Source: a bacterium
Lineage (GTDB): Bacteria; Nitrospirota; Thermodesulfovibrionia; Thermodesulfovibrionales; JdFR-85
Length of the DNA: 47,195 bases
Direction: 5' to 3'
NCBI GenBank assembly: GCA_036244995.1
Contig: BTTF01000003.1
Location: 1 to 47,195 of the forward strand
Part shown: in pieces, positions 1,635-18,832 of the stretch
How positions within the stretch are numbered: the first letter of the stretch is position 1
Layout: each line of letters opens with the position of its first letter
Made by a program: the position numbers and the translations under genes
The notes under the pieces: generated by a model
Told to the model about the DNA's origin: nothing
The model's input: the letters and a program-made list of their open reading frames with translations, nothing else
Database searches by the model: none

Positions 1635-3323
1635 CTAATTGTATATGGTTACAATGGTTTTGTACTTCAACATTCCCGGTGTGGATGTTTTGAATATCCT
1701 GTAAACCCGCTTGTCTTTTATCCGCTGCATTACATGCTCCGGGAGTTTTGGGGCCGGGCTGTCCGCTATGACCACTACGGCGGTCTCTTCGGGCGGGGCT
1801 TTTCCTTTGGGTGCATAAAATGCAGGGTTCCTGTATTCCCATGTAAACCTGGTGGGTGAGTTCAATATCTCCTTTTCAGGAGGACGTTTTATGAGCGCTG
1901 AGTTTAGCCTGTAGTCGTAGAAAATCTCCTTGTCTGTATAGAGGTCAAGGATTGGCACTGCGATTGCCGGGTTTACGTCAGAGTCCTTCTGCGGCAGGGT
2001 GAATACCTCGATGGCCTTGATGTCAAGGGTGTTCAGGGCCTGTCCGGCATTTTTCAGGTTCATCGAGCTGTGCCTCTGCAGGAAGGGGAGGTAGAGGCTG
2101 TAAGCCAGAAGGAGTGAGGTCAGGACTGTGCAGAGGACTATGAACCTTCTGAGGCGGATATCCCTGATCTCCTTGAGACCGTAAGATGCCATAAGTGTGA
2201 GCATTGGAAATAGCGGTATGATGTAGCGGAGCAGTTTTATCTGAAATATAATGAGTATGATGGGCAGGTAACATATGATTGCGTATTTGCTGTCCCACTT
2301 CCTGATGGCAATCCATGCCGAGCATATGGCTGAAATGGTGATAAAGGGATGGGTCTGGAAGAGAAAGGCGGATGTGAAGGTCTCGGTCCATTCGTCCAGT
2401 ACCGTTACCTGATAACCCGTAAGAATTCCGAACTGCCCGGAAATGACGCTGTATTTCAGCGCTACTGCCAATGCAGTGAGCAGTGCTGTTATCAGGGCCA
2501 CGGCAGCCGCCCTCAGGACCATCTTCTTCGGGTTCCTCTTCTGGTAGACCACAAGTATGACTGCCAGGACGGAGAGCATCGGCCAGGTGGAATACTTTGA
2601 AAACATGGCAAGAAAGATCACAATGGATGAAAATATGATTCTCCGGGTGCCTCCCTGCTCCATGACCTTTATGAAGCTGAATATGGAGAGGGTAAGAAAA
2701 AACATTGTTGGGACATCTACCATCATGAGCGGCACCTGCGTGAAGAGGTAAGGGATGCCGAGGAGGAACAAGCCGCCGTAAAGACCTGTTTTTTCATCCC
2801 ACAGGGTTTTGCCGGTCAGATAAGTGAGCACCACTGTAAGGGAAAACAGAAGGGTCGTGAATATCTCAATATAAATAATCCTTTCGCCTGCAAACCTGAA
2901 GATCAGGCCGTAGATGAAGGGGAGTACGGGCGAGTCGGTCCAGGCCGTGATTTCCCGGCCCCATTCACTGAAAAAATACCTGATGCCGTACAGCTCCAGG
3001 TGCTTGGCCTGAATGAAATATCTTGAGGTATCAATATTAAACTGGGGCTCAACCCAGAAGACCGCTGCAGAGACAAACGAGACTGTAAAGAGGAATGTGA
3101 CGGGGTATCGTTCAAAATACCGGTTTTTGGAGAGTGCCCAGGCAAGTATGGTTATCAGGATAATGCCGGGGACGAGGATGAGCAGTATCCCGGCACTGCC
3201 GAGCCCCTCAAACAGCCAAGGCCACCTGAGGGTGAAGTTGGTGTCAGCGGAGCGGAGCAGATAGAGTGCAAGTGGTGTAAGGATGGTGAGGAGAGAGACT
3301 GTTATGGACTCTTTTTTGCTCAT
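1635..3323 (-). CDS. GT-C fold membrane glycosyltransferase (PMT_2/ArnT-like)
   Basis: 562 aa with many TM helices; periplasmic 'IDTSRY' loop, 'DSPVLP', 'MMVDVP', 'SKYS' and 'LRYIIPLFP' typical of the family. Confidence 0.7.
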   Translation of the reverse strand: MSKKESITVSLLTILTPLALYLLRSADTNFTLRWPWLFEGLGSAGILLILVPGIILITILAWALSKNRYFERYPVTFLFTVSFVSAAVFWVEPQFNIDTSRYFIQAKHLELYGIRYFFSEWGREITAWTDSPVLPFIYGLIFRFAGERIIYIEIFTTLLFSLTVVLTYLTGKTLWDEKTGLYGGLFLLGIPYLFTQVPLMMVDVPTMFFLTLSIFSFIKVMEQGGTRRIIFSSIVIFLAMFSKYSTWPMLSVLAVILVVYQKRNPKKMVLRAAAVALITALLTALAVALKYSVISGQFGILTGYQVTVLDEWTETFTSAFLFQTHPFITISAICSAWIAIRKWDSKYAIICYLPIILIIFQIKLLRYIIPLFPMLTLMASYGLKEIRDIRLRRFIVLCTVLTSLLLAYSLYLPFLQRHSSMNLKNAGQALNTLDIKAIEVFTLPQKDSDVNPAIAVPILDLYTDKEIFYDYRLNSALIKRPPEKEILNSPTRFTWEYRNPAFYAPKGKAPPEETAVVVIADSPAPKLPEHVMQRIKDKRVYRIFKTSTPGMLKYKTIVTIYN

Positions 3324-3353
3324 ATCGAGGTAGTGTTTATGTCAACTCACAAG

Positions 3354-3414
3354 TGCCATTCCGGCTTGTGCGGAATCAAAAAGGGGTATGATTCCCGACG
3401 TAGCGGGAATGACA
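3354..3414. repeat. REP/REPIN-like paired palindromes
   Basis: TGCCATTCCGGCTTGTGCGGAATC...GATTCCCGACGTAGCGGGAATGACA: two hairpins in inverted orientation with complementary outer ends. Confidence 0.65.
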
Positions 3415-3682
3415 ATTCAACCTCCCGGCATTACCGGCATTGACCTGACAGTGGTCTCTGTGCTCAGGAATAATACCCTGAAAAACAAGGAATAATCAAT
3501 TTTCCCATGGTTTTTCTGCCTCTATTCCGGGAAACCTCTCTGTGGCAGGCAAAAAGGCCTGCAAATAGTTTATACTATACAGTGGAAATTTGAATCTCCG
3601 CAGCAGTTTGCATCCTCTGAGTTTGCACTGCATAGTTCAAGTACTGGATGCTCTTGATCAATCTTTTTCAGGAGGGGTTTTT

Positions 3683-6088
3683 ATGTCTCGTGTACCTGTA
3701 AGTATAGAAGAGGAGATGAAGGTAAGCTATCTTGATTACGCCATGAGCGTAATCATAGGCAGGGCCTTGCCTGATGTGCGCGACGGGCTCAAGCCTGTGC
3801 AGCGCAGGATACTCTATGCAATGTTCCGGGAAGGGCTGCTTCCGGCAAAGAGGTATTCGAAGTGCGCCGGTGTGGTCGGAGAGGTGCTGAAGAAGTATCA
3901 TCCACACGGTGACAGCGCTGTCTACGATGCCCTTGTGAGGCTTGCCCAGGATTTCAACATGCGTAATCCCCTTATAGACGGGCAGGGTAACTTTGGCTCA
4001 ATTGATGGCGATCCCCCGGCTGCCTACCGTTACACTGAGGCAAGGCTTGCCAAGATTGCAGAGGAACTGCTGAGGGATATAGATAAGGAGACCGTTGATT
4101 TCATTCCGAATTTCGATGAAACAACCGTTGAGCCTGTAGTGCTTCCCACAAGGGTGCCGGGCCTGCTGATAAACGGCTCCTCAGGCATTGCCGTGGGTAT
4201 GGCCACCAATGTGCCGCCCCATAACCTCAGAGAGATAGTAGATGGTCTTGTGATGATCCTTGATAAGCCGGAATCCACGGTGCAGGACCTTATGACGCAT
4301 ATAAAAGGGCCTGACTTTCCAACAGGCGGAATGATTCACGGGCTTGACGGAATACTGTCTGCCTATACCCATGGCCGGGGCATTATAAGGGTGAGGGCCT
4401 GCGCAAGGATTGAGAGACCGCAGAAAGGGCCGGAGCAGATAATAGTGACGGAGATGCCATATCAGGTGAACAAGGCAAGGCTGATTGAAAAGATTGCCGA
4501 GCTTGTCAGGCACAAGAAGATAGAGGGTATCTCGGAGTTGAGGGATGAGTCGGACAGGGACGGTATAAGGGTTGTAATCGAGCTGAAGAGGGGCGAGATG
4601 CCCCAGGTTGTACTGAATAACCTTTATAAACAGACCCAGATGCAGAACACCTTCGGCATAATCATGCTCGCCCTTGTCGGCGGACAGCCCCGGATAATGA
4701 GCCTTAAAAGGATTCTTACCTACTTTATCCAGCACCGCAGGGAGGTAATCCTCCGCAGAACGCGCTTTGAACTGAGAAAGGCTGAGGAGAAGGCGCATAT
4801 CCTTGAGGGTCTGAAGATAGCCCTTGATTACCTGGATGAGATTATAAACCTGATAAGGGCCTCAAGGAATCCCCAGGAGGCCAAGACAGGGCTGATGACG
4901 AGGTATCCCCTCTCTGCCGTCCAGTCACAGGCTATCCTTGATATGAAACTCCAGAGACTGACCGGGCTGGAGAGGGACAAGATAATCAACGATTATGAGG
5001 AGACGATGAAGGAGATAGAGAGGCTGAAGTCGATACTCGCGAGTGAGACTCTGGTTAATGACATAATAAGGAACGAGCTCCTTGAGATGAAGGAGAAATA
5101 CGGTGACGACAGGCGGACCGAGATAATGGCCGCTACCAAAGAGATAACCATTGAAGACCTGATTACTGAAGAGGAGATGGTCATCACCATATCCCACAGG
5201 GGATATGTCAAGCGTAACCCCCTCAGTGAATACCGCAGCCAGAGAAGAGGCGGAAAAGGCCTCATCGGGATGGAGACGAGAGAGGAGGATTATGTTGAGC
5301 AGCTCTTTATCGGCTCAACACATGATTATATGCTCTTCTTCTCCAACCTCGGCAGGCTTTACTGGCTGAAGATTTATCAGATACCCGAGGCAGGCAGGGC
5401 CGCAAGGGGCAAGGCGATCGTAAACCTCCTGCAACTGCAGGAAGGCGAGAGGATCACGACGGCCATTCCCGTAAAAGATTTCAGGGAAGGCTATCTGGTG
5501 ATGTTTACAAAGAAGGGTACCGTCAAGAAGACACCCCTTCATGACTTCAGCAATCCAAGGGGGAGGGGAATTATCGCAATAGCCCTTGATGAAAAGGATG
5601 AGCTTATAGCCGTGAAGATGACATCAGGCATCAATGACCTCCTTATAGGCACGAGAGACGGGCTTGCAACAAGGTTCAAGGAGGAGGATGTAAGACCCAT
5701 GGGGAGGACTGCCAGGGGTGTCAGGGGCATAAGGCTTGGCCCTGATGATGAGGTGGTCTCTGCTGTGGTGGTGCAGGAGAGGACGGCGATACTTACGGTT
5801 ACAGAGCGGGGATATGGCAAGAGGACAAAGGTTGAGGAATATCCTGCTCATAAACGTGGTGGAAGGGGTGTTATATCCATAAAGGTTACCGACAGGATAG
5901 GCCGGGCCGTGGGGCTTCTGCAGGTGAGGGATGATGACGAGATAGTCATGATAACCAATGCCGGAAAACTGATAAGGACAAGGGCCGGAAATATCTCTCT
6001 CCTTGGCAGGAATACCCAGGGTGTAAAACTGATGGATGTTGACCCTGATGACAGGATTGTGAGCCTTGGAAGAGTTGCAGAAAAGTGA
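3683..6088 (+). CDS. gyrA: DNA gyrase subunit A
   Basis: [32 protein letters not shown] (catalytic Tyr), GyrA-box QRRGGKG and pinwheel repeats. Start moved to ATG 3683 after GGAGG. Confidence 0.97.
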
Positions 6089-6225
6089 GAGGCTCTGTTC
6101 AGTTTGAAGGTAAATAATGCTTTTGTTGTTTAGATAAAACTTGAAGAGAGCTGATTTTTGTCGGAAGGTTTCTGTGATCTCGATCTTTTCTGCGGTAGAT
6201 TGAAGTGCTCCCATGGGTTTGGTGA

Positions 6226-7260
6226 ATGAGTTTGTTAAATGCCATAACAGGCCACGACAGGCCTAAAAATATACTCCTTGGCTCGATCGGGACGGCAAGG
6301 GTTGCAACTACCTATCTCTTTACCGGTGAGAGCGGGATAGGCAAGAGGCTCGCTGCAATTGAATTTGCCGGGGCGGTTAACTGTCTCAACCCCGTAAAGG
6401 TAATCCGCAACCCGCAACTCGCAACTCGTAACCCGCAATCCGCAACCCGCAATCCGCAACCCGAATATCTGGATGCCTGTGACAGTTGCAGCTCCTGCAG
6501 GAAATTCTCCTCTCTCCTCCATCCGGACCTTAAGGTCGTAGAGGCTGACAGTGGCCTTATAAAGATTGACACAATAAGGGAGGTACAGGAGTTTTTATCT
6601 TTTACACCCTATGAGGGCAGAAAAAAAGTGGTTATAATAGATGGTGCGGAGTGCATGAATCCGTCGGCATCCAATGCATTTCTGAAGACCCTGGAGGAGC
6701 CGCCGCCCGACAGTGTGATAATACTGATAACAATGGCCCCTGACAGGCTGCTGGATACCATCAGGTCAAGGTGTTTTGTGGTGAGGTTTTCGCCCCTGAG
6801 CATTAGTGCCTGCAGGGATGTTATCAGCAGGAAAGTCAGCGGTCTTGATGCAGAGACACTGGAGTCCCTGGCGGCATTTTCAATGGGACGCCCGGGTGTG
6901 GCTATTCAGGGAGAGGGGGCTATGGCGAGGGACACGATCAGCGGCATGGTGCATGATATTGTCGGGGGAGGATTGTCGTTTCAGTGGAAGGACAGGACTG
7001 ATATGGACCAGTGGTGCAATCTCTTCCTGATGGTGCTGAGGGATATGATAGTTATGAAGATAAACCCTGATAACCGGGGATTGCTTATAAACAGATGGCT
7101 TGAAAGCGAGATATCCGCAATCAGCAGGAGTATGGAGCTGGAAGAGATTCTGAAACTTTATTCCGAAGTCAGTCTCCTGATGGCTCACTTCAGGTTTAAC
7201 CTGAATACGTCAATAGTGTCGAATTATATAAAATCGATGTTTGTTAACCGGGTAACATAA
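6226..7260 (+). CDS. holB: DNA polymerase III delta' subunit
   Basis: YLFTGESGIGK, Zn cysteines C...CDSCSSC, HPD, NAFLKTLEEPP, TIRSRC. Confidence 0.93.
   Translation: MSLLNAITGHDRPKNILLGSIGTARVATTYLFTGESGIGKRLAAIEFAGAVNCLNPVKVIRNPQLATRNPQSATRNPQPEYLDACDSCSSCRKFSSLLHPDLKVVEADSGLIKIDTIREVQEFLSFTPYEGRKKVVIIDGAECMNPSASNAFLKTLEEPPPDSVIILITMAPDRLLDTIRSRCFVVRFSPLSISACRDVISRKVSGLDAETLESLAAFSMGRPGVAIQGEGAMARDTISGMVHDIVGGGLSFQWKDRTDMDQWCNLFLMVLRDMIVMKINPDNRGLLINRWLESEISAISRSMELEEILKLYSEVSLLMAHFRFNLNTSIVSNYIKSMFVNRVT
6403..6465 (+). repeat. Nine tandem heptamers (ATCCGCA/ACCCGCA/ACTCGCA variants), in frame inside holB
   Basis: atccgca acccgca actcgca actcgta acccgca atccgca acccgca atccgca acccgaa = 63 bp, 21 codons. 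Confidence 0.9.
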
Positions 7261-7341
7261 ATAATTCACTTGCAGTGCACGCCGGGAGCGCCGGGGTTTT
7301 CTGTGCATTGCGGTAATTTAATTCTGATTTGAGGGAGAGTT

Positions 7342-8538
7342 ATGAGTGTGTCAGTCAATGATAAAGACGAAAATGGAGTGAAGACCCACCCCGCTGTCGG
7401 GGTCAGGTTTAAACCGTGCGGCAAGATATACAGTTTTGACGCTGGTGAGCTTGAGCTGAAGAAGAGCGACAAGGTGGTTGTGGAGTCCATGTTCGGGCTT
7501 ACCATAGGGACGGTTGTGCAGGAAGTCTCTGAAAGTCCACAGGCTCAAAAGGGTGATTCCCGGGATGAGGCGGGGGAGAGGAAAGGCCCTGCGGCAAAGC
7601 CCCCCAAGGAGCTCAAGCCGGTAGTCAGAAAGGCAACTGAAGAGGACATCAGGGCCGCGGAGAGTAACAGTGAACTTGAGGTCGAGGCAAGGCGTCACTG
7701 CCTCGAAAGGATAGCTGCAAGGGGGCTTCCGATGAAGCTTGTAAGTACGGAGGCTACCCTTGACAGGAAGAGGGTGATCTTTTATTTTACCGCTGACGGC
7801 AGGATTGATTTCAGGGAGCTCGTCAAGGATCTTGCGTCCAGATTCAGAACGCGGATAGAGATGCGCCAGATTGGTGTAAGGGATGAGTCAAAGTTGATCG
7901 GCGGCATTGGTGTGTGCGGCAGGGAGTTTTGCTGCCGGGCGTTCCTTACAAGTTTTGCCCCTATCTCGATCCGCATGGCAAAGGAGCAGGAGCTGGTATT
8001 GAATGCCGCCAAGCTTTCCGGTGTATGCGGCAGGCTAATGTGCTGCCTCAGCTATGAGTATGATGAGTGGCAGGCAGAGGGGCTTGATGAGGTTGTTCCC
8101 GAGGACCCGATGAATGGGTGCCTTTGCGGAGATTGCAATTCAGAGAGTTCGGAGAGTCTTGTGTCGTCACTGACGCAGGGGGACGATGCCCCTGTTTCAG
8201 AGAAAAAGAGGGAAGAATCCAGGCCTGCAAGGGATAAATCATCATCTGCCGGCGGTGGTTTTAAGGAGAGAAAGCGGCCTGCCAGGCAAAGAAAGCCTAT
8301 GTCCAGTGAACGCGCGAGTGCAGGTAGTGACAAGTCTTCCGGTGCTGTGGCAAGACCTCCGGAGACCGCGGCAGGGGATAAGATATCCGCTGATACCTCT
8401 GATACCTCCGGCTCTGCAGAAAAGGGTGACCTTGAGGTAAAACAGACTGATGCCTCCCGGCAGGAGAATACGGGGACAGACAAGAAGAAGAGGCCTTACT
8501 TCAGGCACAAGAATAAAAAGAGGAGGAAGCACAGGTAG
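7342..8538 (+). CDS. ricT: PSP1-domain protein (RicT/YaaT family) with long low-complexity charged C-tail
   Basis: FYFTADGRIDFRELVKDLA, GVCGREFCC, LSGVCGRLMCCLSYE; position between holB and metG. Confidence 0.9.
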   Translation: MSVSVNDKDENGVKTHPAVGVRFKPCGKIYSFDAGELELKKSDKVVVESMFGLTIGTVVQEVSESPQAQKGDSRDEAGERKGPAAKPPKELKPVVRKATEEDIRAAESNSELEVEARRHCLERIAARGLPMKLVSTEATLDRKRVIFYFTADGRIDFRELVKDLASRFRTRIEMRQIGVRDESKLIGGIGVCGREFCCRAFLTSFAPISIRMAKEQELVLNAAKLSGVCGRLMCCLSYEYDEWQAEGLDEVVPEDPMNGCLCGDCNSESSESLVSSLTQGDDAPVSEKKREESRPARDKSSSAGGGFKERKRPARQRKPMSSERASAGSDKSSGAVARPPETAAGDKISADTSDTSGSAEKGDLEVKQTDASRQENTGTDKKKRPYFRHKNKKRRKHR

Positions 8539-8540
8539 AG

Positions 8541-10475
8541 ATGGATAAGAAATTTTACGTCACCACTCCCATATATTACGTTAACGATATCCCCCATATC
8601 GGGCATGCCTATACAACGGTTGCTGCTGATATCCTTGCAAGGTTTAACCGTCTGAGGGGAAACAGTGTCTTTTTTCTTACAGGTACGGACGAGCATGGAC
8701 AGAAGGTCCAGAAGGCGGCAGAGGAGAAGGGCCTTACACCGGGCGAACATGCCGATACCATGGTGAAGAATTTTGAAAACCTCTGGAAGAAGCTTGATAT
8801 ATCAAATGATGCATTCATAAGGACAACGGATGAAGGACACCGGAGTGTTGTCCGTGAGATGCTTGAAAAACTCAAACAGAAAGGCAGGATTGTAAAGAGG
8901 GCTTATAAGGGATGGTACTGTACGCCGGACGAGAGGTTCTGGACAGAGAAGGAACTGCTTGACGGTAATTGTCCGGAGTGCGGGAGGCCCGTAGAGGAGA
9001 TAGAGGAGGAGAATTATTTTTTCCTCATGTCTGAATACAGGGAAAGGCTCATCAGGCATATAGAGGACAATCCCGGATACATCCGGCCTGAGACGAGGAG
9101 GAATGAGGTCATGGGGTTTTTACACTCCAGGGACCTCGGAGACCTCTGCATATCGCGGCCCAAAAAGAGGCTTCCGTGGGGAATACCCCTTCCCTTTGAT
9201 GAGGATTACGTGACCTATGTCTGGTTTGACGCCCTTCTTAATTATTATTCTGCAACCCGTTATCTTGCACCGCCCCTGGGGACCGAATCCTGGTGGCCTG
9301 CTGATCATCACATTGTCGGCAAGGATATACTGACAACCCATGCAGTCTACTGGTCAACCATGCTGATGGCACTTGACATGCCTTTGCCCGGAAATATATT
9401 TGCCCACGGATGGTGGACTGTCAAGGGAAGAAAGATGTCCAAATCCGTCGGGAATGTGGTTGACCCAAACGAAATGATCGAAAAATACGGGGCGGATGCC
9501 TTCAGATACTTCCTCTTCAGGGAGGTTCCATTCGGCCTTGACGGTGATTTTTCCGAAGATGCACTTATTGGCCGCATCAACAGTGACCTTGCAAATGATT
9601 TGGGTAATATTTTGAGCCGTACCCTGACCATGATAGAAAAATACAGAGAGGGTATAATTCCCGAGGCAATTGACGGCAAGGACAGGGAAGGTATGGAAAA
9701 AAGGATCAAGGCGTGGTTTGATGCAGAATCAACAATCGGCATGTCAAACATTTTTGGTGGTTTTCTGGAAAAACTCGAGTTCCACCACGCACTTGCCCTG
9801 TTGTGGAAGGTTATGGGTGAGATAAACGAGTATATACAGCATGCAGCTCCCTGGAAAGAAAAGGATGAAGGAACTCTATCCAATACGCTTTATACCATTG
9901 CCGAGGCCCTCGGTATAATCGCCGTCTATCTCTTTCCGTTTATGCCTGCTACGGCAAAGAAGATGTGGGGACAGCTCGGTATTGACGGCAGGATAGGAGA
10001 AAGGAAAGAATTGCCGAAATGGGGAGACCTGCAGGTCAGCGGCAGGAGGGTGAGAAAGGGAGAGCATCTGTTTCCAAGGATTGAAAAGCGTAAGGAAGAC
10101 AGGAAAGAGGCTGTCCCTGACAAGAAAGCAAAAGAGGAAAAAAGAGAAGATACAGGCCTTATATCCATAAACGATTTTGCCAAAGTTGAGCTTAAGGTCG
10201 GAAAGATACTGGAGGCCGAGCGTGTCAAGGGCTCAAATAAACTCATAAAATTGCAGGTGGATACAGGAGAGCAACGGCAGATTGTTGCGGGAATCGGCAA
10301 GGTATACAGCCCGGAGCAGCTTGTGGGCAAAAAGATTGTCGTGGTTGCAAACCTGAAACCCGCAAAACTCATGGGTGTTGAATCCCGGGGTATGCTCCTG
10401 GCTGCCAATGACGGGGAGAAGCTTGTCCTTGTAACTCCTGAGGGAGATGTTGGGGTGGGGGCAGGTGTCAGGTAG
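8541..10475 (+). CDS. metG: Methionine--tRNA ligase with C-terminal tRNA-binding domain
   Basis: HIGH and KMSKS motifs, FYVTTPIYYVN, C-terminal OB domain (VVANLKPAKLMGVESRGM). Confidence 0.97.
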   Translation: MDKKFYVTTPIYYVNDIPHIGHAYTTVAADILARFNRLRGNSVFFLTGTDEHGQKVQKAAEEKGLTPGEHADTMVKNFENLWKKLDISNDAFIRTTDEGHRSVVREMLEKLKQKGRIVKRAYKGWYCTPDERFWTEKELLDGNCPECGRPVEEIEEENYFFLMSEYRERLIRHIEDNPGYIRPETRRNEVMGFLHSRDLGDLCISRPKKRLPWGIPLPFDEDYVTYVWFDALLNYYSATRYLAPPLGTESWWPADHHIVGKDILTTHAVYWSTMLMALDMPLPGNIFAHGWWTVKGRKMSKSVGNVVDPNEMIEKYGADAFRYFLFREVPFGLDGDFSEDALIGRINSDLANDLGNILSRTLTMIEKYREGIIPEAIDGKDREGMEKRIKAWFDAESTIGMSNIFGGFLEKLEFHHALALLWKVMGEINEYIQHAAPWKEKDEGTLSNTLYTIAEALGIIAVYLFPFMPATAKKMWGQLGIDGRIGERKELPKWGDLQVSGRRVRKGEHLFPRIEKRKEDRKEAVPDKKAKEEKREDTGLISINDFAKVELKVGKILEAERVKGSNKLIKLQVDTGEQRQIVAGIGKVYSPEQLVGKKIVVVANLKPAKLMGVESRGMLLAANDGEKLVLVTPEGDVGVGAGVR

Positions 10476-10494
10476 GGTTTTTTAAGGTGATGAA

Positions 10495-10585
10495 TGGCGG
10501 AGGGGGTGAGATTCGAACTCACGGAGGCCGTTCAGACCTCAACGGTTTTCAAGACCGTCGCCTTAAACCACTCGGCCACCCCTCC
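10495..10585 (-). tRNA. tRNA-Ser(TGA)
   Basis: Reverse complement GGAGGGGTGGCCGAGTGGTTTAAGGCGACGGTCTTGAAAACCGT...GTTCGAATC...CCGCCA; long variable arm, encoded CCA. Confidence 0.95.
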
Positions 10586-10672
10586 TTATTAGTCAGAATT
10601 AGTCAGATAACCAGATAATAATAATTGAAATTATAACAAAATTGCCACTTTTTAGTCCGCTTTTCGCTTGCC

Positions 10673-10702
10673 TTGACAGTGATAAACTTTTGCTGGTATA
10701 GT
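10673..10702 (+). promoter_or_regulatory. sigma70-type promoter of the rpsU operon
   Basis: TTGACA-18 nt-TATAGT, with TG extended -10. Confidence 0.6.
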
Positions 10703-10750
10703 ATTTTTATTTTTTTAAAATATATAAATAGAGAGGAGTGTGGTTAGTGG

Positions 10751-10951
10751 ATGCCCTCTGTGAGTGTCAGGAAGAACGAGTCCTTCGAGCTTGCACTGAA
10801 GAGGTTTAAGAAACAGTGTGAGAAAGACGGAATACTCTCGGAGATCAGGAAGCGGGAGCATTATGAAAAGCCGAGCGTCAAGAGGAAGAAAAAGATACTT
10901 GCAGCGCGGAAAAAAGCTCTCAAGAAAATGAGACTGTATCAGGGAAGGTAA
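10751..10951 (+). CDS. rpsU: 30S ribosomal protein S21
   Basis: [33 protein letters not shown]. Confidence 0.96.
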
Positions 10952-11395
10952 ATGTCCATACTTGAAAGGATTGACAGCGACCTGAAGGTTGCGATGAAGT
11001 CTTCTGAGAAGATCAGGGTTTCAACTCTCAGAATGGTGAAGGCCTCTCTGAAGAACCTTGAAATAGAAAAAGGAGAGCTTTCAGATGACGATCTAATCGG
11101 GGTGCTGAGTACCCAGGCAAAACAGAGAAGGGAGTCCATCTCCGAGTTTGAGAAGGGTGGAAGGCAGGACCTTGCAGATCAGGAGAGGGAGGAACTTGCT
11201 GTCATCCTGGGTTATCTGCCCGAGCAGTTATCGGAGGAGGAACTTGCCGGTATAATCCTGGAAACTATAAGGGAGACAGGTGCGTCTTCCCTGAAAGACA
11301 TGGGACGGCTTATGAAGAGCCTTATGCCCCGGGTTAAAGGCAGGGCTGACGGCAAACTGGTAAGTCGGAAGGTGAAGGAATTATTGGGGAATTAA
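10952..11395 (+). CDS. GatB/YqeY domain protein
   Basis: DLKVAMKS...KQRRESI.EFEKGGR.DLA..E..EL...YLPEQLS...DMGRLM; follows rpsU. Confidence 0.92.
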   Translation: MSILERIDSDLKVAMKSSEKIRVSTLRMVKASLKNLEIEKGELSDDDLIGVLSTQAKQRRESISEFEKGGRQDLADQEREELAVILGYLPEQLSEEELAGIILETIRETGASSLKDMGRLMKSLMPRVKGRADGKLVSRKVKELLGN

Positions 11396-11426
11396 TAGTA
11401 CTATAAAGACTTAAAGAATTTGCCTG

Positions 11427-11523
11427 GACAGGATTAACAGGATGAACATGATAAAACAAAATTGAATTATTTTTATCAGTTTAATTTAAAAAAAGAAATC
11501 CTGTAAATCCCGTTAATCCTGTC
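11427..11523. repeat. Nonamer-based inverted repeat element (GACAGGATTAACAGGAT...ATCCTGTC), copy 1
   Basis: 26-nt arms 11427-11452 and 11498-11523, 22/26 complementary, AT-rich spacer. Confidence 0.85.
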
Positions 11524-11589
11524 TGAAAACAGCAGTTGGTCTTTATTATTTTCTGTCATACAACATAAAACATAAAAAAGGAGAACTGG

Positions 11590-12540
11590 ATGACACTTGG
11601 TGAACTATACGAAAAGGCGGTCTCGATCGGTATCGGCAATGACCCCAGGGGCATTGATATTGTTAATAATGAACTGTCATCTGTAAAAAAGAACCTTGAC
11701 GAACTAAAAGACAGGGATAAAGAGTTTTTTGACCAGGAGACGCTTAAAAACCCTTATGCCGATTCCAGAATACTCTATGGCAATGGTGACGAGGAGATAA
11801 AGACAATCCTTGCGGGGATTGACATAGAAGTGGGCGAGGTAGTGCTTGCCGATCAGTTGAGGTCAAAGGGAAGGACAATAAGCATGCTGCTTTCTCATCA
11901 CCCTGAAGGCCGTGCCTATGCCCATCTTTACGATGTCATGAGAATGCAGTCGGATGTGCTCCACAGGTTTGGCGTGCCCATCAATATTGCCGAGGACCTG
12001 ATGGAGGGGAGGATAAAGGAGGTCGAGAGGCGGCTCATGCCGGTTAATCATACCCGTGCCGTAGATGCAGCGAGACTCCTTGACATACCTTTTATGTGCC
12101 TTCATACCCCGGCCGACAATATGGTAGCTTCCTATCTGCAGGGAGTCTTTGATGGGAAAAAGCCTTACAGGATTGAGGATGTAGTTGACCTCCTGCTGGA
12201 GGTGCCTGAATACAGGCAAGCCAAAAAGATTGGCGCCGGACCAAAGATACTCATTGGCTCGGAAAAGAGAAAGGCCGGAAAAGTCTTTGTTGATATGACA
12301 GGCGGCACCGAGGGTTCGAAGAAGATATTCAGCAGTTTAACCGCAGGTGGCGTCAGTACGATAGTGGCCATGCATCTGAGTGAGGATCACCGGAAAGAGG
12401 CCGAGAAAAACCACCTCAACGTTGTTATTGCCGGACACATTGCAAGTGACAATGTCGGTGTTAACCTCCTCCTTGACAAGATACTTGACGATACGATCGA
12501 GGTGATCGAATCTTCCGGTTTCAGCCGCGTCAGGAGATGA
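11590..12540 (+). CDS. NIF3-like dinuclear metal-centre protein
   Basis: SHHPEG, CLHTPADN, IAGHIASD metal-ligand motifs. Confidence 0.8.
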   Translation: MTLGELYEKAVSIGIGNDPRGIDIVNNELSSVKKNLDELKDRDKEFFDQETLKNPYADSRILYGNGDEEIKTILAGIDIEVGEVVLADQLRSKGRTISMLLSHHPEGRAYAHLYDVMRMQSDVLHRFGVPINIAEDLMEGRIKEVERRLMPVNHTRAVDAARLLDIPFMCLHTPADNMVASYLQGVFDGKKPYRIEDVVDLLLEVPEYRQAKKIGAGPKILIGSEKRKAGKVFVDMTGGTEGSKKIFSSLTAGGVSTIVAMHLSEDHRKEAEKNHLNVVIAGHIASDNVGVNLLLDKILDDTIEVIESSGFSRVRR

Positions 12541-12604
12541 TGCCGGAGGTTCTTGGTTTTAATTTTGTTTATTTACCGTTTTTTATATTTTAAAAAAACC
12601 TTCT

Positions 12605-14314
12605 ATGGATTTAAGCAATGTTGTTGATGAGATCAAGACTCGCCTTGATATCGTAGACCTGCTTTCCGGGTATATTGATCTGAAGAGGACAGGGCAGAAT
12701 TTTAAGGCCCTCTGTCCGTTTCATACTGAAAAGACGCCCTCTTTTGTTGTAAGTCCTGATAAACAGATATTTCATTGTTTTGGTTGCAATGCCGGTGGAG
12801 ATGTTGTTACATTTATCATGAAGTATGAAAACCTCTCCTTTCCCGAAGCGGTCAGGGCGCTTGCCGAGAGGGCCGGTATCAGGATTGAGCAGGAATCCGT
12901 AAGGCCATCTGCAACCACGACATTGAGGAAAAGACTTGTAGAGATGCACAAGGATGCCTGTGCCTTTTATGAGACTGAGCTGGGCAGGAATGCACAGGCA
13001 AGGGATTATCTCAAGAAAAGGGGGCTTTCGGATGAGACAATCGGTGTGTTTGCAATAGGGTTTGCCCCCGGCGGGAACCTGCTCCTGAAATTCCTGAAGA
13101 CAAAGGGATTTCAGGAGAGCGATATGCTTGCCTCAGGGCTGTGTAAGGATACAGAGCGGGGGAAAATGGATACCTTCAGAAACAGGGTTGTCTTTCCGAT
13201 ATCCAACGTTCGGGGAGAGGTGATTGCCTTTGGTGGACGTATCCTTGTCGACAATGCCCGTGCCCCCAAGTATCTGAATTCACCGGAGACCATCCTTTTC
13301 AAGAAATCTTCCGAGCTTTTTGGTCTTAACCTTGCGAAGACAGACATAAGAAAGCGGGGTTATGTAATCATGATGGAGGGGTATCTGGATGTTATAACTG
13401 CCCATCAGCACGGAATAAAGAATTCCGTGGCCCCCCTTGGAACTGCACTTACAGAGGCTCAGGCAAAAAAACTGAAGGCACTGACAAAGAAAATACTGCT
13501 TGTCTTTGATTCTGATGATGCAGGGATTAAGGCCTCGGTGAGGGCACTTCCCCTGCTGTATGAGGATGGTTTTGTTGCAAAGGTATTATTGCTGCCGTCA
13601 GGAGACGATCCTGATACATTTTTGAGGAAAAAGGGACGGGATGCCTTTCAGCAGAAATTCAGGGATGTTATGGGTCTTGTTGACTTTTACCTCTCTCTCT
13701 CCGGGGAAAGGGTTGACATTGTCAGGGATCTGATACTTATAATTTCCAGGGTGACGGACGGCATAATAAGGAGCGATTTAATCAGGGAGGTATCTGAGAA
13801 AACAGGTCTTTCAGAGCAGTTTTTGAGGGAGGAGCTGAATCTCCTGAGGAAGAAACCCGGTCTGTCCCGTAGTGATAGAAAGAATGCCGAGCCAATGTCT
13901 GCTGAAAGGTTTCTCCTGGGTGTATACCTTTCTTATCCGGAGCATGTCCACTTGATAAGAGAGAGTATCACACCGGCTGAGATTGAAGATAAGAGTGTGA
14001 GGGCCATATTCGAGAAACTTTATTTTTCATCTGTCTCAAAGCTTGAGGAAATTACGGCAAAACTCAACGAGCATGACCTGGCCATTGTTACAGGGGCAAC
14101 CATGGGACTCAACATCGACGGTGAGGAGGTTGAAAAGAATATCAGGGATTGCATAAGGACCATCAGGTACAAGAAACTTAAGAGAAGACTCAGAGACCTG
14201 GAGATGGAGATCAGGATTGCTGAAAACAGGGGTGAGGGACACCTTATTAATAACCTGCAGGATCAGATGAATCTCCTGATCAAGGAGGGGGGAGCGGATG
14301 AAGGAGTATTTTGA
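12605..14314 (+). CDS. dnaG: DNA primase
   Basis: CPFH..KTPSF...FHCFGC zinc finger, [31 protein letters not shown]. Confidence 0.96.
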
Positions 14315-15857
14315 TTTCTACGAAGATTCCATCTATGATTCAGATGGTTCAGGTCTGAGGCCTGAAGAGAAGGAACTGTATGAAGAGGAGGAGGCAGGGC
14401 AGGGTGTCAAGGAGGAGCATGACCCGTTAAGGTCTTATATGAAAGAGATGGGGGCTGTCCCTCTTCTGACCAGGGAGGGAGAAGTAGAGATTGCAAAAGA
14501 GGTGGAAAGACGCAGGCAACAGTTGACCCTGGCTACATTTTCTGTTCCTCTAATCCTGAAAAAATTAATAATCCTTGGTGAGTTGATAGAACGGGGAGAA
14601 GCGCCCATGAGGGAGATAATACAGACAGAAGGTGATGAGAGTGAAGAAGACCTGTTGGTCAGGAAAAGGGAGTTTTTTAAACATACCGAGAAGATAAGGG
14701 AACTTTTCAACAAAAGGATGCAGCTCCTTGGAGAACTGAGCAGGGAAGGTCTCAGAAAAAAGCAGGGGTCGGAAAAGATTATCCGTGAGTTGAAAAACAA
14801 CAGGAAAGACGTTTATGAGGAGATCAAAAACCTGAATCTGAAGGATTGTGCTGTGAATACCTTTGCAGATGAACTAAAGAGATTAAGTGCCCTGCTAATT
14901 CAGAATCATAGGGAACTCATGCTGATAAAGAGGAGACTCAGAAAGAGGAATATCGGGATTCCGCCGGAAGAAGATATCTCCAAGTATCCTGAAAAGGTGC
15001 AGGATATATTGAGAGAGTATTTCCTGAAACAAGAGGAGATTGCCGCGATGGAGAAAGATGTCGGGATGGAAGGTGCGCAACTCAGGCATGTACTCAGGGC
15101 AATCCAGAAGGCTGACAAGACCATACACGAGGTCAAATCCAGACTTGTAGAGGCTAACCTCAGGCTTGTCATAAGCATTGCAAAGAGATATATAGGCAAG
15201 GGGCTTAGCTTCTCGGATCTCATACAGGAAGGTAATATAGGATTGATGAGGGCGGTTGACAAGTTTGAATACAGGCGGGGGTATAAGTTCAGTACTTATG
15301 CCACGTGGTGGATCAGACAGGCTATAACAAGGGCTATTGCCGACCAATCCCGTACAATAAGAATACCTGTTCATATGATAGAGACCATAAACAAGGTTAC
15401 AAGGAGTTCGAGGGAACTTGTCCAGGAATTCGGCAGAGAGCCTTCTGAGGAAGAGATTGCAAAAAGAATTGACATGCCGGAGGCGAGGATAAAGGAGATA
15501 CTCAAGATTGCCAAGGAGCCGATATCCCTTGAATCCCCGGTTGGTGATGATGAGGAAGGCCAGCTCAGGGATTTCATTGAGGATACCCTGATGTCATCCC
15601 CCCTTGATGAAGCCATTCATGGAGACCTGAGAAGGAACATAGAGAAGGTGCTGATGAGTCTAAACCCGAAAGAGGCCGAGGTTATAAGGAAGCGCTACGG
15701 CCTTGACGGGTCTAACTTTCCTCATACCCTTGAGCAGGTCGGCAAGGCCATGGAGGTAACCCGCGAAAGGGTGAGACAGATTGAGGTTAAGGCCATAAGG
15801 AAGTTAAAACACCCCTCAAGGAGCAGGTGGCTTAAGTCTTTTATGGAAAGAACTTGA
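14298..15857 (+). CDS. rpoD: Primary RNA polymerase sigma factor (sigma70)
   Basis: [11 protein letters not shown] (region 1.2), [45 protein letters not shown]; follows dnaG. Confidence 0.95.
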
Positions 15858-15897: not shown

Positions 15898-15973
15898 GGG
15901 CCCATAGCTCAGCTGGAAGAGCCACCGGCTCATAACCGGTTGGTCCCAGGTTCGAGTCCTGGTGGGCCCACCA
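15898..15973 (+). tRNA. tRNA with CAT anticodon, probably tRNA-Ile2 (lysidine); elongator Met not excluded
   Basis: GGGCCCATAGCTCAGCTGGAAGAGCCACCGGCTCATAACCGGTTGGTCCCAGGTTCGAGTCCTGGTGGGCCCACCA. G1-C72 is paired, so not an initiator; located after rpoD like ileX. Confidence 0.9.
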
Positions 15974-15989
15974 TTTTACTGATAAACAT

Positions 15990-16065
15990 TGGAGAGATAG
16001 AGGACCGGTAACCCTGAGAAACATTGCTGCAGTCAGCCCGGTGCTCCATCTTTCCAGGTTTTTTT
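15990..16065 (+). terminator. Long imperfect hairpin followed by a U-tract
   Basis: TGGAGAGAT...ACCGG...CCGGT...ATCTTTCCA followed by GGTTTTTTT. Confidence 0.45.
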
Positions 16066-16137
16066 GATTATGTTCAAAATAACAGTCGATGGACTCTTGA
16101 AAAGTCCATAAAATTAACGAATGTCGGATTGGAGAGA

Positions 16138-16887
16138 ATGAAAGAGGAACTCAAGCTTCTTGTTGCCCTTCAGGAGATAGATTCTATTATCCTCCGGAAG
16201 AGACTTGAACTAAAAAAGGCGCCTGAAGAGATCAAACGTTACCAGGGACCTTTAAGCGAGTCTGAAAAGGCGTATAAGGGGGAAAAAGAAAAGTACGAAG
16301 CTGTTGAAAAGAAGAAAAAACAGAAAGAGCTCGATGTAAAGGAGGTTGACGACAGGATTGAGAAGCTGAAATCGAGAATGTCGGATATAAAGACCAACAA
16401 GGAATATAAGGCCCGCCTGAAAGAGATCGAAGTTATCGAGAGGGAAAGATCAAGGCTGGAAGACGATATCCTCTACATGATGGAAGAGCTTGATGAGGTA
16501 TCAGCGGGACTGAAAGAGGCTGAAAGGCGGATAGGGGATGAGAAGAAACGGCTTCAATCCTTACAGAAAGAACTGGATGTCAAGAGTGGTTTGATCGAAA
16601 AGGAACTTGCGGAGCTGAAGGAGCAAAGAGAAACTTTTGTCGGAAAGATTCCATCAGGTCTTTATAACAGATACATGGAAGTTTTACAGAAATCCAGCGG
16701 CCTGTCCGTGGTTGAGGCAAAGGATGATCGATGCCTTGGATGTTATATGAGTATTCCCCCCCAGATATACGTTGAGATAAAGACATCAGATGAGATTATG
16801 CAATGTCCTCAATGCGGCAGGTTCCTGTACCGTAAGGAGACCGCTGCTGGCGAAGCACAGGAACAAGTCAGCAAGAATTCAGATTGA
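16138..16887 (+). CDS. Coiled-coil C4 zinc-ribbon protein (DUF164/CT398-like)
   Basis: LQEID start, long coiled coil, C-terminal CLGC..IPPQ...CPQCGRFLY. Start moved to ATG 16138 after GGAGAG. Confidence 0.9.
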   Translation: MKEELKLLVALQEIDSIILRKRLELKKAPEEIKRYQGPLSESEKAYKGEKEKYEAVEKKKKQKELDVKEVDDRIEKLKSRMSDIKTNKEYKARLKEIEVIERERSRLEDDILYMMEELDEVSAGLKEAERRIGDEKKRLQSLQKELDVKSGLIEKELAELKEQRETFVGKIPSGLYNRYMEVLQKSSGLSVVEAKDDRCLGCYMSIPPQIYVEIKTSDEIMQCPQCGRFLYRKETAAGEAQEQVSKNSD

Positions 16888-16973
16888 AGACAAAGAAACC
16901 GATATGCAGAAAACAGCGAAGCCGATCCCCTGGCAAAGAAGGCTGTTCAAAGAGTCAACCGTTAATTACAATA

Positions 16974-17460
16974 AATGCAGGGCAGGTGAGATGGTTGCTC
17001 CGCAGGCCGGCGTATGCCTGAGATTGCGGAGAGGAAAGTCCGGGCTCCGAAGGGCAAGGACAGTGGCTAAGTGCCACCGTCCCGCATCCGCAAGGATTTA
17101 TCCAGCCGGCTGCGGGATAGGGAAAGTGCCACAGAAAAGATACCGCCTGTGTGAAGGGGTCAGGTCTCAACATTCAACATAAGCAGGTTCTATCCGGGGA
17201 GCTTGAGAGTTATGTTGAATGTTGAGACCTGACCCCTCATCTCACGGTAAGGGTGAAAAGGTGGGGTAAGAGCCCACCGCTGCGGGGGTGACCTTGCAGG
17301 CATGGTAAACCCTGTCCGGAGCAAGGCCATGTAGGTTCCGCCTCGAGGGTGGCCCGCCCGATTGAGCGGAACGGGTAGGCTGCATGAGTCCGGGAGCAAT
17401 CCCGGACCTCAGATGAATGACCATTACATACAGAACCCGGCTTATTGCCTGCTCTGCATT
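16974..17460 (+). ncRNA. rnpB: RNase P RNA, bacterial type A, about 487 nt with enlarged P12
   Basis: GAGGAAAGTCCGGGC (17031), GGAAAGTGCCACAGAAA, GGTAAGGGTGAAA, GGTAAACC, ACAGAACCCGGCTTA; P1 = AATGCAGGGCAGG / CCTGCTCTGCATT. Confidence 0.95.
17155..17237. mobile_element. Putative non-autonomous hairpin element (perfect 28-bp inverted repeat) inside rnpB P12
   Basis: AGGGGTCAGGTCTCAACATTCAACATAA (17155-17182), 27-nt loop, exact reverse complement at 17210-17237. The repeat is seen directly; mobility is inferred. Confidence 0.7.
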
Positions 17461-17523
17461 CAATATAAGAAGGTTTTATCCTGGGAGCTTGAGAGTTATG
17501 TTGAATGTTGAGACTTGACCCCT
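17457..17523 (+). repeat. Second, left-truncated copy of the P12 element at the rnpB 3' end
   Basis: 62/67 identical, ungapped, to 17171-17237. Confidence 0.9.
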
Positions 17524-17536
17524 GACTTTAAAAATT

Positions 17537-18832
17537 ATGAAAACTGTAAAGACAGCCGTCCTTCTTTTGCTGTTCCTTTCTTTGTCACTACCGCTTTTTT
17601 CTGAAGAAACCAGGGCGGGGCAGGTCATGGTAATAACTGTTCAGGGTGTCATAAATCCTGTCTCCTCTGAATATATAGAAAAAAGTATTGAGGAAGCGAA
17701 TGGACAGGGGATGGAGGCCCTTGTGATTGAACTGGATACTCCGGGGGGCCTCGACACTTCCATGCGGTCAATTATAAAGGTTATAAACGGCAGTGAGGTG
17801 CCTGTGGTGGTTTATGTGGCCCCATCAGGGGCGAGGGCTGCCTCGGCAGGTGTCTTTATTACAATGGCTGCGCATATTGCGGCAATGGCCCCGGGCACCA
17901 ATATAGGTGCTGCCCACCCTGTTGGAATCGGTGGCAAGATGGACAAGACCATGGTTGAGAAGGTAACAAATGACGCAGTGGCCTATATAAAATCCATTGC
18001 TGAAAGGCGCGGCAGGAATGTGCAATGGGCAGAAGATGCCGTAAGAAAGAGCGTTTCTATCACTGCCGGTGAGGCACTGAAACTCGGGGTGATAGACCTT
18101 GTGAGCAAGGATATTGGAGACCTCCTTGACAGGATTGACGGTATGAAGGTGAAAACCCCGGCAGGAGAGAGGGTGCTTCATACCAGAGGGGCTTCAGTTG
18201 TAAGGAAAGAGATGGGCCTGAGGCTGAAGATACTTGCCTTGATAAGCAATCCCAATATTGCTTATATATTAATGCTCCTCGGTTTCTATGGCCTCTTCTT
18301 TGAATTCACAAACCCGGGCTCGATATTTCCGGGGGTGGTGGGCGGAATATGCCTTATACTTGCCTTTTATGCCTTTCAGACCTTACCTGTCAATTATGCG
18401 GGGCTTCTTCTTATTGTCCTTGCCGTAATCCTCTTTATCCTGGAGATAAAGATAACATCCGGTGGAGTACTGACCATCGGTGGTATTATATCCATGATTA
18501 TAGGCTCTATAATGCTGTTTGAAAGTCCGGACCCTTTTATTAAACTCTCCATATACCTTATTGTGCCGGCAGTACTAATAACGGCCTTCTTCTTCTCTGT
18601 AACCGTTGGTCTTGCGGTAAAGGCCTGGAAGAGAAAGCCCGTAACAGGGATTGAGGGTCTTGTGGGGCTTGAGGGAGTTGCCCATACGGATGTGTTTGAA
18701 GACGGTATGGTGCTTGTTCACGGAGAATACTGGAGGGCATACAGTGACGAACCGGTTAAAAAGGGAGAGAAAGTGATCGTTGAGTCTGTTTCGGGACTCA
18801 GAATAAAAGTCAGAAAGGAGGAGAGGAGATGA
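17537..18832 (+). CDS. nfeD: NfeD-family membrane-bound serine protease (long form)
   Basis: Signal peptide, LDTPGG, RAASAG, GAAHPV, TM bundle, C-terminal OB domain (VHGEYWRA). Confidence 0.93.

Follow-up and report, generated by a model that had tools for sequence, protein, structure and literature searches.

How does a sequence that elsewhere forms the ends of a transposase gene come to make up most of a helix in RNase P RNA? The question is raised by a 47,195-nucleotide (nt) stretch of DNA from a Thermodesulfovibrionales bacterium (hereafter the window; coordinates are window positions unless a contig or locus is named), in which the RNase P RNA gene, rnpB, encoding an essential ribozyme that processes tRNAs, carries a long hairpin in helix P12. 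We analysed this hairpin in its own genome (G000; 2.26 Mb, 191 contigs), in seven congeners (G001–G007) and in wider sequence collections. The hairpin is very probably a non-autonomous dimer of terminal inverted repeats (TIRs) from a TIRtron, tolerated in P12 and now constituting most of that helix.

The host gene is otherwise ordinary. rnpB, the bacterial type-A RNase P RNA gene, occupies positions 16979–17459 (+ strand; 481 nt including the insert) and matches Rfam RF00010 (RNaseP_bact_a) without truncation over model positions 1–367, at 266.5 bits against a gathering score of 100 (E = 6e-86). Despite the insert, the core motifs, namely the P4 strand GAGGAAAGUCC, J11/12–J12/13 GGUAAGGGUGAAA, and ACAGAACCCGGCUUA, are intact, align with high posterior probability and are also conserved in relatives. 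Type-A membership is therefore backed both by a full-length covariance match above the gathering score and by the core motifs. In the same alignment, a large insert separates the two strands of P12. This agrees with a first-pass annotation, made from the letters of the window, which had seen a perfect 28-bp inverted repeat with a 27-nt loop between ACCGCC and GGTAAGGGTGAAA and had proposed the Rfam alignment as a check.

P12 as a whole spans 17143–17252 (+), as judged from the Rfam structure line and from RNA folds of this species and five relatives, and comprises a conserved base (CCGCC/GGU-AA-GG), an irregular linker (17148–17154 and 17238–17245) and the inserted hairpin. The latter is an 83-nt REPIN-like element in distal P12 (17155–17237, +), flanked by ACCGCC (ending at 17147) and GGTAAGGGTGAAA (from 17246). 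Its left arm (17155–17182), which reads A-GGGGTCAG, is one TIR copy, and its right arm (17210–17237) is the same TIR inverted. The arms (sequence AGGGGTCAGGTCTCAACATTCAACATAA) are 28 nt each, 100% complementary and separated by a 27-nt spacer (17183–17209) of a type unique to the rnpB locus; each contains two copies of the direct repeat TCAACAT. Folded as RNA, P12 with its insert reaches −67.4 kcal/mol, compared with −30.7 ± 3.6 kcal/mol for 200 shuffled sequences (z = −10.3, 0 of 200 as good), while the 83-mer folded as DNA gives z = −11.5. The hairpin is far beyond chance. In the predicted RNA folds of all six species that carry it, it stacks on the P12 base through the short irregular linker, and a coaxial extension of P12 by the hairpin is thus predicted.

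Using repeat searches, we found the 28-mer at 18 places in its own genome (≤6 mismatches). These places form seven dimers of 64–149 nt, a truncated copy behind rnpB, one or two solo copies and one pair bracketing a 1000-bp unit. Apart from that in P12, contig C28 has two dimers, and C18, C53, C77 and C5 have one apiece; in the C5 dimer the left arm is degenerate. The family thus amounts to about ten elements, mostly dimers and mostly intergenic, and dimers are present in five relatives as well. Around the remaining copies (7 loci, 19.8 kb), there were no Rfam matches. Taken alone, the 28-mer contains no palindrome (0 kcal/mol, with 200 of 200 shuffles folding as well), and because it lacks secondary structure, the TIR is not a classical repetitive extragenic palindromic (REP) sequence.

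The 1000-bp unit (C29:17628–18627) has 28-bp TIRs at both ends (17628–17655 and 18600–18627). On its minus strand it encodes a 305-amino-acid protein with a Y1_Tnp domain (PF01797, 4.1e-13) and a C-terminal Bac_DnaA_C domain (PF08299, 1.1e-15, residues 230–293), in which the HYH and YIHANP motifs are readable. Judged by sequence, the unit is a TIRtron encoding a putative TIRYT, that is, a RAYT-like HUH/Y1 single-strand-DNA transposase with a C-terminal helix-turn-helix of the DnaA domain IV type. These names were introduced for RAYT-like genes bracketed by TIRs (TIRtrons) and their enzymes (TIRYTs); in the portions of the paper available to us, the TIRs share the motif GGGGWSAS and are also found scattered singly, as dimers or in clusters (Di Nocera, De Gregorio & Rocco 2013, PMC3733652). 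Since the arm A-GGGGTCAG fits GGGGWSAS and the anatomy matches that of a TIRtron, the P12 hairpin is a TIR dimer of a TIRYT family. The earlier proposal of a mobile REP/REPIN-like element therefore holds as regards a transposase-end-like unit that forms REPIN-like dimers, whereas the classical REP part gives way to the TIR/TIRYT class.

Further TIRYT-related sequences surround this unit and the window. At C29:18573–18627 (locus L048 2422–2450, minus strand), a TGACAT variant of the TIR holds a perfect TTGACA; with TG-n-TAAGAT 17 nt on, this hexamer resembles a promoter (10 of 12) directed into the TIRYT gene. The arms in P12 are of the CAACAT variant and do not have TTGACA. The window itself begins with a paralogous Y1_Tnp plus Bac_DnaA_C gene (1–903, +), which the contig start interrupts and which shares 34% identity with the C29 TIRYT; behind it, three CTGACCCC(C)-type motifs (895–960) once more match the complement of GGGGWSAS. 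The genome has about 7 such distant paralogues of the TIRYT (contigs C89, C13, C36, C79, C162 and C25).

The same transposon end is found in other phyla. At least 120 stretches of the genome collection contain the exact 19-mer GGGGTCAGGTCTCAACATT; by record titles, those among the matches listed derive from Atribacterota, Clostridia, Aminicenantes, Thermodesulfobacteriota, Methylomirabilota, Aerophobetes, Elusimicrobia, Omnitrophota and others. We inspected 80 of these loci (L081–L160), and the following counts apply among the matches listed. Conservation runs for ~24 nt. An adjoining TIRYT gene, 31–57% identical to that on C29, is present at 11 of the 80 loci, and 9 of the 10 such TIRYT loci examined have the same TIR at one or both ends. 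A motif search placed the 19-mer within an rnpB-like gene at none of the 80. The TIR thus appears not to have arisen from rnpB. The first ~24 nt of the TIR (GGGGTCAGGTCTCAACATT + YRACA) are identical across phyla, for example at L123 66–1103, L099 2504–3586 and L093 90–1130. An identity of ~24 nt over such distances would be unusually deep conservation for a transposon end, although an exact-match search selects for it.

When did the dimer enter rnpB? RF00010 was found in 26 of 41 genomes of relatives, and the comparison within the genus comprised eight species (G000–G007). Six of these (G000 and G002–G006), all uncultured, have the hairpin at the same P12 position, whereas G001 and G007 have ordinary short P12 hairpins of 13–15 bp, that is, empty alleles. 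The native distal stem that the empty alleles keep is gone in the six filled species. A 25-mer core of the TIR (≤3 mismatches) was counted 5–13 times per strand in each of the six filled species and not once in G001 (96% complete) or G007 (91% complete); the reversed-pattern control gave 0 in every genome. Filled P12 and the TIR family therefore occur in the same six genomes. Outside P12, the rnpB genes of the filled species are 90.5–98% alike, and the empty two are 86–90% identical to them. On the simplest reading, one insertion took place in the ancestor of the six species.

The first-pass annotation had called for a search for empty P12 alleles in relatives and for copies elsewhere in the genome, and both exist: the two empty species lack the repeat family, and the genomic copies include the ends of the Y1 HUH transposase unit. 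A genome with no other copies, coupled with the same P12 in every relative, would have spoken against a mobile element; neither was found. The suggestion that the internal copy inserted more recently did not survive, as the P12 copy is common to six species.

The partner gene shows a comparable history. TIRYT orthologues (95–97% amino acid identity) occupy the syntenic site in G002, G004 and G005, with flanks 90–92% identical over 1.9–3.9 kb, indicating that the gene is vertically inherited. In a genome of another genus (G012), a 72%-identical TIRYT copy is bracketed by the same TIR core. A metagenome scan for the P12/TIR junction returned seven matches, four of which are rnpB genes with a filled P12 (L204, L206, L207 and L210); the remaining three represent a chance ACCGCC beside a TIR.

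A second copy of the element lies directly behind rnpB. As the first-pass annotation had reported, it is truncated on the left (17457–17523, +; 93% identity over 67 nt to element positions 17–83); in an ungapped register (17452–17523, 72 nt) the identity is 90%. Of its left arm, the first ~16 nt are missing and about 13 nt remain, while its right arm (17496–17523) has one mismatch. It starts in the final nucleotides of rnpB: in the ungapped register these are P1's last 4 nt, as had been stated, and in the Rfam alignment the unpaired 3′ tail. Because the spacer type of the P12 copy recurs only in this copy, we regard the two as sisters. Alignment with the complete copies behind rnpB in G002 and G003 indicates that, in G000, the end of rnpB was joined to inner left-arm sequence by a 31-nt deletion between two CATT repeats. 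The left arm of this copy is damaged in G004, and the whole copy is absent from G005 and G006. Thus, all six species and the four metagenome alleles have kept the P12 copy intact, whereas 4 of 6 species have a damaged or truncated sister copy ~300 bp away, or none. The described contrast between a perfect internal and a decayed external copy is accordingly true of the window, where the deletion truncated the external one, but that copy is complete in two relatives, and perfect arms are not unique to P12. As DNA, what remains of the downstream hairpin has a weak fold (−7.6 kcal/mol, z = −1.8); given this fold and the lack of a terminator-like site, a terminator role is unsupported.

We next consider how the P12 copy has changed since insertion. 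Mean pairwise differences among the six filled species were lowest in the right arm (1.2%), the rnpB 3′ part (2.1%) and the left arm (4.3%), followed by the upstream flank (15.6%), P3 (23%), the P9–10 region (28%), the loop (31%) and the P12 linker (34%). We examined 35 dimers, a subset of all copies that consists of those of G000 and 20 regions picked from the 25-mer list. The six P12 copies have 0, 0, 0, 1, 1 and 3 arm mismatches. The inner 8 bp of the arms (positions 21–28) are the usual mismatch sites in other dimers, and are conserved and paired in the P12 copies of 5 of 6 species. Together, the conserved and paired inner 8 bp, the lost native stem and the worse fate of the sister copy point to an extra constraint on the P12 copy.

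The palindrome has also been rearranged. In G002, G005 and G006, a short-loop allele has arms of about 31 bp and the 5-nt loop AGCAA. In the metagenome allele L204 the loop reads TTGCT, which is AGCAA (as in G005) reverse-complemented, and this flip is the signature of recombination between the arms. Between G005 and G006 there is a pairing-preserving double change (AAGC/GCTT versus AACC/GGTT). Since each can be explained at the DNA level, neither the flipped loop nor the double change is proof of selection on the RNA. Across G002, G005, G006, L204 and L210, short-loop alleles exist in both loop orientations.

RNA sequencing data bear on whether the transcript includes the hairpin. In 12 RNA-labelled runs, only 0.04 of the sampled words were present. 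Contigs from runs X12, X10 and X7 cover just the universally conserved stretches either side of P12 and, because they are joined across different, short P12 sequences, represent rnpB of other organisms. Run X13, whose library type is unrecorded, contains contigs of relatives. Among them is a 47-nt contig that extends from the right arm (17218) to 17265 at a word depth of about 4035, with 20 nt on the arm side, which is below our 31-nt bridging rule. Word depths in this run were 3041–15411 in the arm bins, about 5030 in the rnpB 3′ half and about 13 in the flanking genes. This is at most a weak hint that an abundant rnpB molecule of a relative includes the arms.

On the basis of the element's identity, autonomous partner gene, age and distribution, as observed above, we infer the following course of events. 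TIRYT, acting in trans on single-stranded DNA with the paired TIRs as the substrate hairpin, would have put a dimer into distal P12, at the tip of the helix, in the common ancestor of the six species, and a sister copy with the same spacer type would have been placed just behind the gene. The transcript would retain the hairpin, its arms pairing into a ~30-bp helix stacked on the P12 base and pointing away from the catalytic core. Because P12 is peripheral and the helix would point outwards in this manner, the ribozyme could tolerate the addition. The native distal stem would then have degenerated, leaving the element to supply most of P12. Three forces may maintain the identity of the arms: a family-wide constraint on TIR sequence, as all copies share the TIR and the 19-mer extends across phyla; recombination between the palindrome arms, of which the flipped loop allele is an example; and, probably, the need for a closed P12 helix.

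Several observations weigh against this account. As regards the enzyme, no TIRYT orthologue was found in G003 (84% complete) or G006 (78% complete), though both hold the TIR family. The best NCBIfam match of the C29 protein, REP-associated tyrosine transposase (REP_Tyr_transpos, NF047646), scores 73 bits and so falls below the cut-off of 80, and a phmmer search of the protein against PDB sequences gave weak DnaA domain IV matches only and no solved RAYT. The literature searched contained no experiment on binding, cleavage or mobilisation of TIRs by a TIRYT. As regards movement, the copies inspected in G000 and its relatives have no target-site duplication, and their flanks have no conserved target motif or hairpin target; across phyla, the flanks of the TIR are merely A/T-rich. 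The family looks nearly static, because many dimers apparently occupy orthologous sites in several species. As regards the RNA, the genome encodes RNase III (237.6 bits, cut-off 166), and cleavage of the predicted ~30-bp duplex is possible. In every species the intergenic copies, too, have the outer 20 nt of the TIR unchanged, and the 27 other dimers examined, with 0–4 arm mismatches, include five that are perfect; arm conservation alone is therefore no proof of selection by RNase P. Finally, the short-loop allele spans both rnpB subgroups (G002 versus G005 and G006) and is not tree-like, which suggests recombination between lineages, or parallel change through repeated palindrome rearrangement.

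Four other explanations have to be set against a tolerated TIR dimer. One is an assembly artefact, a possibility also named in the first-pass annotation, for instance a chimeric join or a palindrome made by the assembler; the assembly is indeed fragmented (191 contigs) and palindromes can disturb de Bruijn assemblers. The hairpin is no such artefact, since the assemblies of five other species, as well as four metagenome contigs, all have it at the same site; with six separately assembled species bearing species-specific substitutions, such an error is scarcely conceivable. Hardly less improbable is a local origin, in which P12 underwent a native, lineage-specific expansion and the other copies spread out of rnpB by duplication. 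Such an origin would suit the spacer type common only to P12 and the copy directly behind rnpB, as well as the long P12 arms (63–132 nt) of other genera of the family, which are unique sequences, not repeats, in all three tested of the six. It would leave unexplained why the same TIR brackets TIRYT genes here and in a different genus, why the 19-mer flanks TIRYT genes in many phyla with none, among the matches listed, in rnpB, and why GGGGWSAS had been described for TIRYT TIRs as early as 2013 (PMC3733652, accessible portions). We likewise consider it very unlikely that the element is a classical MITE (a miniature transposable element with inverted repeats), that is, a deletion derivative of an insertion sequence with a DDE transposase, moved by cut-and-paste with target-site duplication. 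Terminal inverted repeats, small size, a variable interior and a mostly intergenic location are what a MITE would have, but no copy inspected has the duplication, and the sole gene bracketed by these TIRs encodes a Y1 HUH enzyme, not a DDE transposase.

The alternative that comes closest to the tolerated dimer is exaptation, in which the hairpin is now a selected functional part: a replacement P12 rod that the specificity domain needs to fold or to stay stable, a site where a protein binds, or an RNase III site that yields a two-piece ribozyme. The three signs of extra constraint named above agree with it, and the RNase III gene suits its processing variant. Yet the two empty congeners and other genera of the family manage with P12 hairpins of 23–25 nt, arm conservation is a property of the whole repeat family, and a palindrome may stay perfect through recombination between its arms, with no need for selection at the RNA level. 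P12 itself has been called sometimes dispensable in RNase P RNA, in the part of PMC2858038 available to us. We therefore consider exaptation unlikely. A related reading, in which the transposon-end dimer took over P12, the native distal stem decayed and purifying selection kept the hairpin as the body of the helix, is a tentative proposal that we would not favour at present. If true, P12 would be a ribozyme expansion segment caught in the act of being born from a mobile element. As a bolder extension, the abundant RNase P RNA, by displaying the TIRYT recognition sequence in a stable hairpin, could preserve a master copy for the TIR family under protection or act as its RNA decoy. The tolerated TIR dimer remains our preferred interpretation.

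P12 varies in length elsewhere in the family. In other genera, long P12 arms of unrelated sequence are found in G008, G015, G019 and G022 (98–104 nt), G013 (132 nt) and G009 (63 nt), corresponding to loci L022, L023, L026, L027, L031 and L032; species within one genus share just the basal ~12 bp. The P12 of G013 (132 nt), searched in its own genome, and those of G008 and G022 (100 nt each), searched in four genomes each, matched only themselves. A role for P12 as a general landing pad for repeats in the family is thus unsupported by the three of six long arms tested. The rnpB of G022, at 531 nt, seemingly has a second insert elsewhere. No type-A RNase P RNA was found, even at a lenient threshold, in G012, G014 and G018 (same family, 100% complete) and several genomes of the same order. 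In total, RF00010 had no match in 15 of 41 genomes, and a repeat search in five of these again gave none above the cut-off; these genomes may have a very divergent RNA or a protein-only RNase P.

The surroundings of rnpB complete the description of the locus. Upstream lies a gene for a CT398-like coiled-coil/C4 zinc-ribbon protein (16024–16887, +; PF24481 9.5e-15, PF02591 1.1e-14), and downstream one for an NfeD-family membrane protease (17537–18832, +; PF24961, PF25145, PF01957), which alignment shows to be syntenic in all six hairpin-bearing species. Scanning around rnpB revealed no convincing rnpB promoter or terminator. The segment of ~60 nt preceding the gene (16908–16966) is conserved in all filled species and extends an open frame (…AENSEADSLAKKA…) in G003, G005 and G006, while the sequence further upstream differs in G000, G002 and G004; it looks like the 3′ remnant of a displaced gene. 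A spurious 130-amino-acid frame (16790–17182) crosses from the stretch before rnpB into the left arm. The window also contains tRNA genes at 15898–15970 (+) and 10498–10585 (−), with 67.9 and 62.1 bits, the former ~1 kb upstream of rnpB.

By itself, the locus opens no long-standing question, as repeat inserts in P12 have reportedly been known since 1997. What it adds is the link from a P12 insert to a defined transposase family, with a date for the insertion within one genus. With six filled and two empty species, it provides a dated comparative example of how a peripheral ribozyme helix grows, in which a mobile-element hairpin would land in the loop and then replace the native stem. It also gives a host-gene phenotype to the TIRtron/TIRYT class, which has been named and is experimentally untouched, and it supplies a natural set of TIRYT substrates, dimers of 64–168 nt with an invariant 20-nt end. 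In practical terms, inserts of this kind add about 80 nt to rnpB, and gene finders or open-reading-frame callers can be misled by them during annotation.

Among known systems, the TIRtron/TIRYT class is apparently the closest family for the element, all its sequence-level features being present. A RAYT-like Y1/HUH gene is bracketed by long TIRs instead of REP palindromes, and the TIRs are plain and not self-folding, carry GGGGWSAS and form a moderately small family of singles and dimers. The C-terminal Bac_DnaA_C helix-turn-helix is also as expected: in the accessible parts of the survey by Quentin et al. (2018, PMC6006769), most TIRYTs belong to subclass 2.1, with a helix-turn-helix of the Bac_DnaA_C, HTH_23 or HTH_28 type, and its subgroup 2.1.2 has a Bac_DnaA_C-like domain. 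The class has few mentions in the literature searched. Unlike what the available portions of PMC3733652 and PMC6006769 describe, the TIR dimer here lies within a structural RNA gene, and the first 19–24 nt of the TIR are identical across phyla while protein identity goes down to 31–57%.

The REPIN/RAYT system (Bertels & Rainey 2011, PMC3116915; PMC3337134) would be the closest functional analogue. As described in the accessible parts of these papers, it shares two inverted units around a spacer that form a long hairpin with dispersed copies; a tyrosine transposase flanked by the same units, vertically inherited, syntenic and single-copy as an orthologue; and a repeat population that persists across species. 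It differs in that the unit here is no REP, with neither a palindrome of its own (dG 0) nor a GTAG head, in that the family numbers ~10 elements per genome, not hundreds, alongside the distant TIRYT paralogues, and in that the protein stays below the NF047646 cut-off. The element would thus work like a REPIN while standing outside the REP/RAYT family in the strict sense.

Two further parallels concern the host RNA. Intervening sequences (IVSs) of bacterial 23S and 16S rRNA genes are excised by RNase III without religation; they resemble our element in that a long, near-perfect hairpin sits at the end of an outer helix in an essential structural RNA, in a genome with RNase III, and differ in that the host here is RNase P RNA, not rRNA, and that excision of the P12 hairpin is at most a possibility. 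The literature searched (supplements outside the search) contained, among the matches listed, no report of a transposon-end hairpin in rnpB, which is no proof of absence. By analogy, the closest precedent for a repeat in the host gene would be the STRR sequences (short repeats in tandem) that Vioque is said to have described in 1997 within helix P12 of rnpB from heterocyst-forming cyanobacteria. There too, a type-A RNase P RNA that is normal in other respects reportedly tolerates a genome-wide repeat that lengthens its peripheral helix P12. However, STRRs are said to be tandem heptamer arrays with no known transposase, whereas the P12 insert has no such tandem heptamers and is an inverted repeat with a unique spacer, a dimer of a transposon end whose autonomous partner resides in the same genome. 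A mobile-element remnant in a ribozyme is, in this company, well-supported but not unprecedented, and possibly co-opted.

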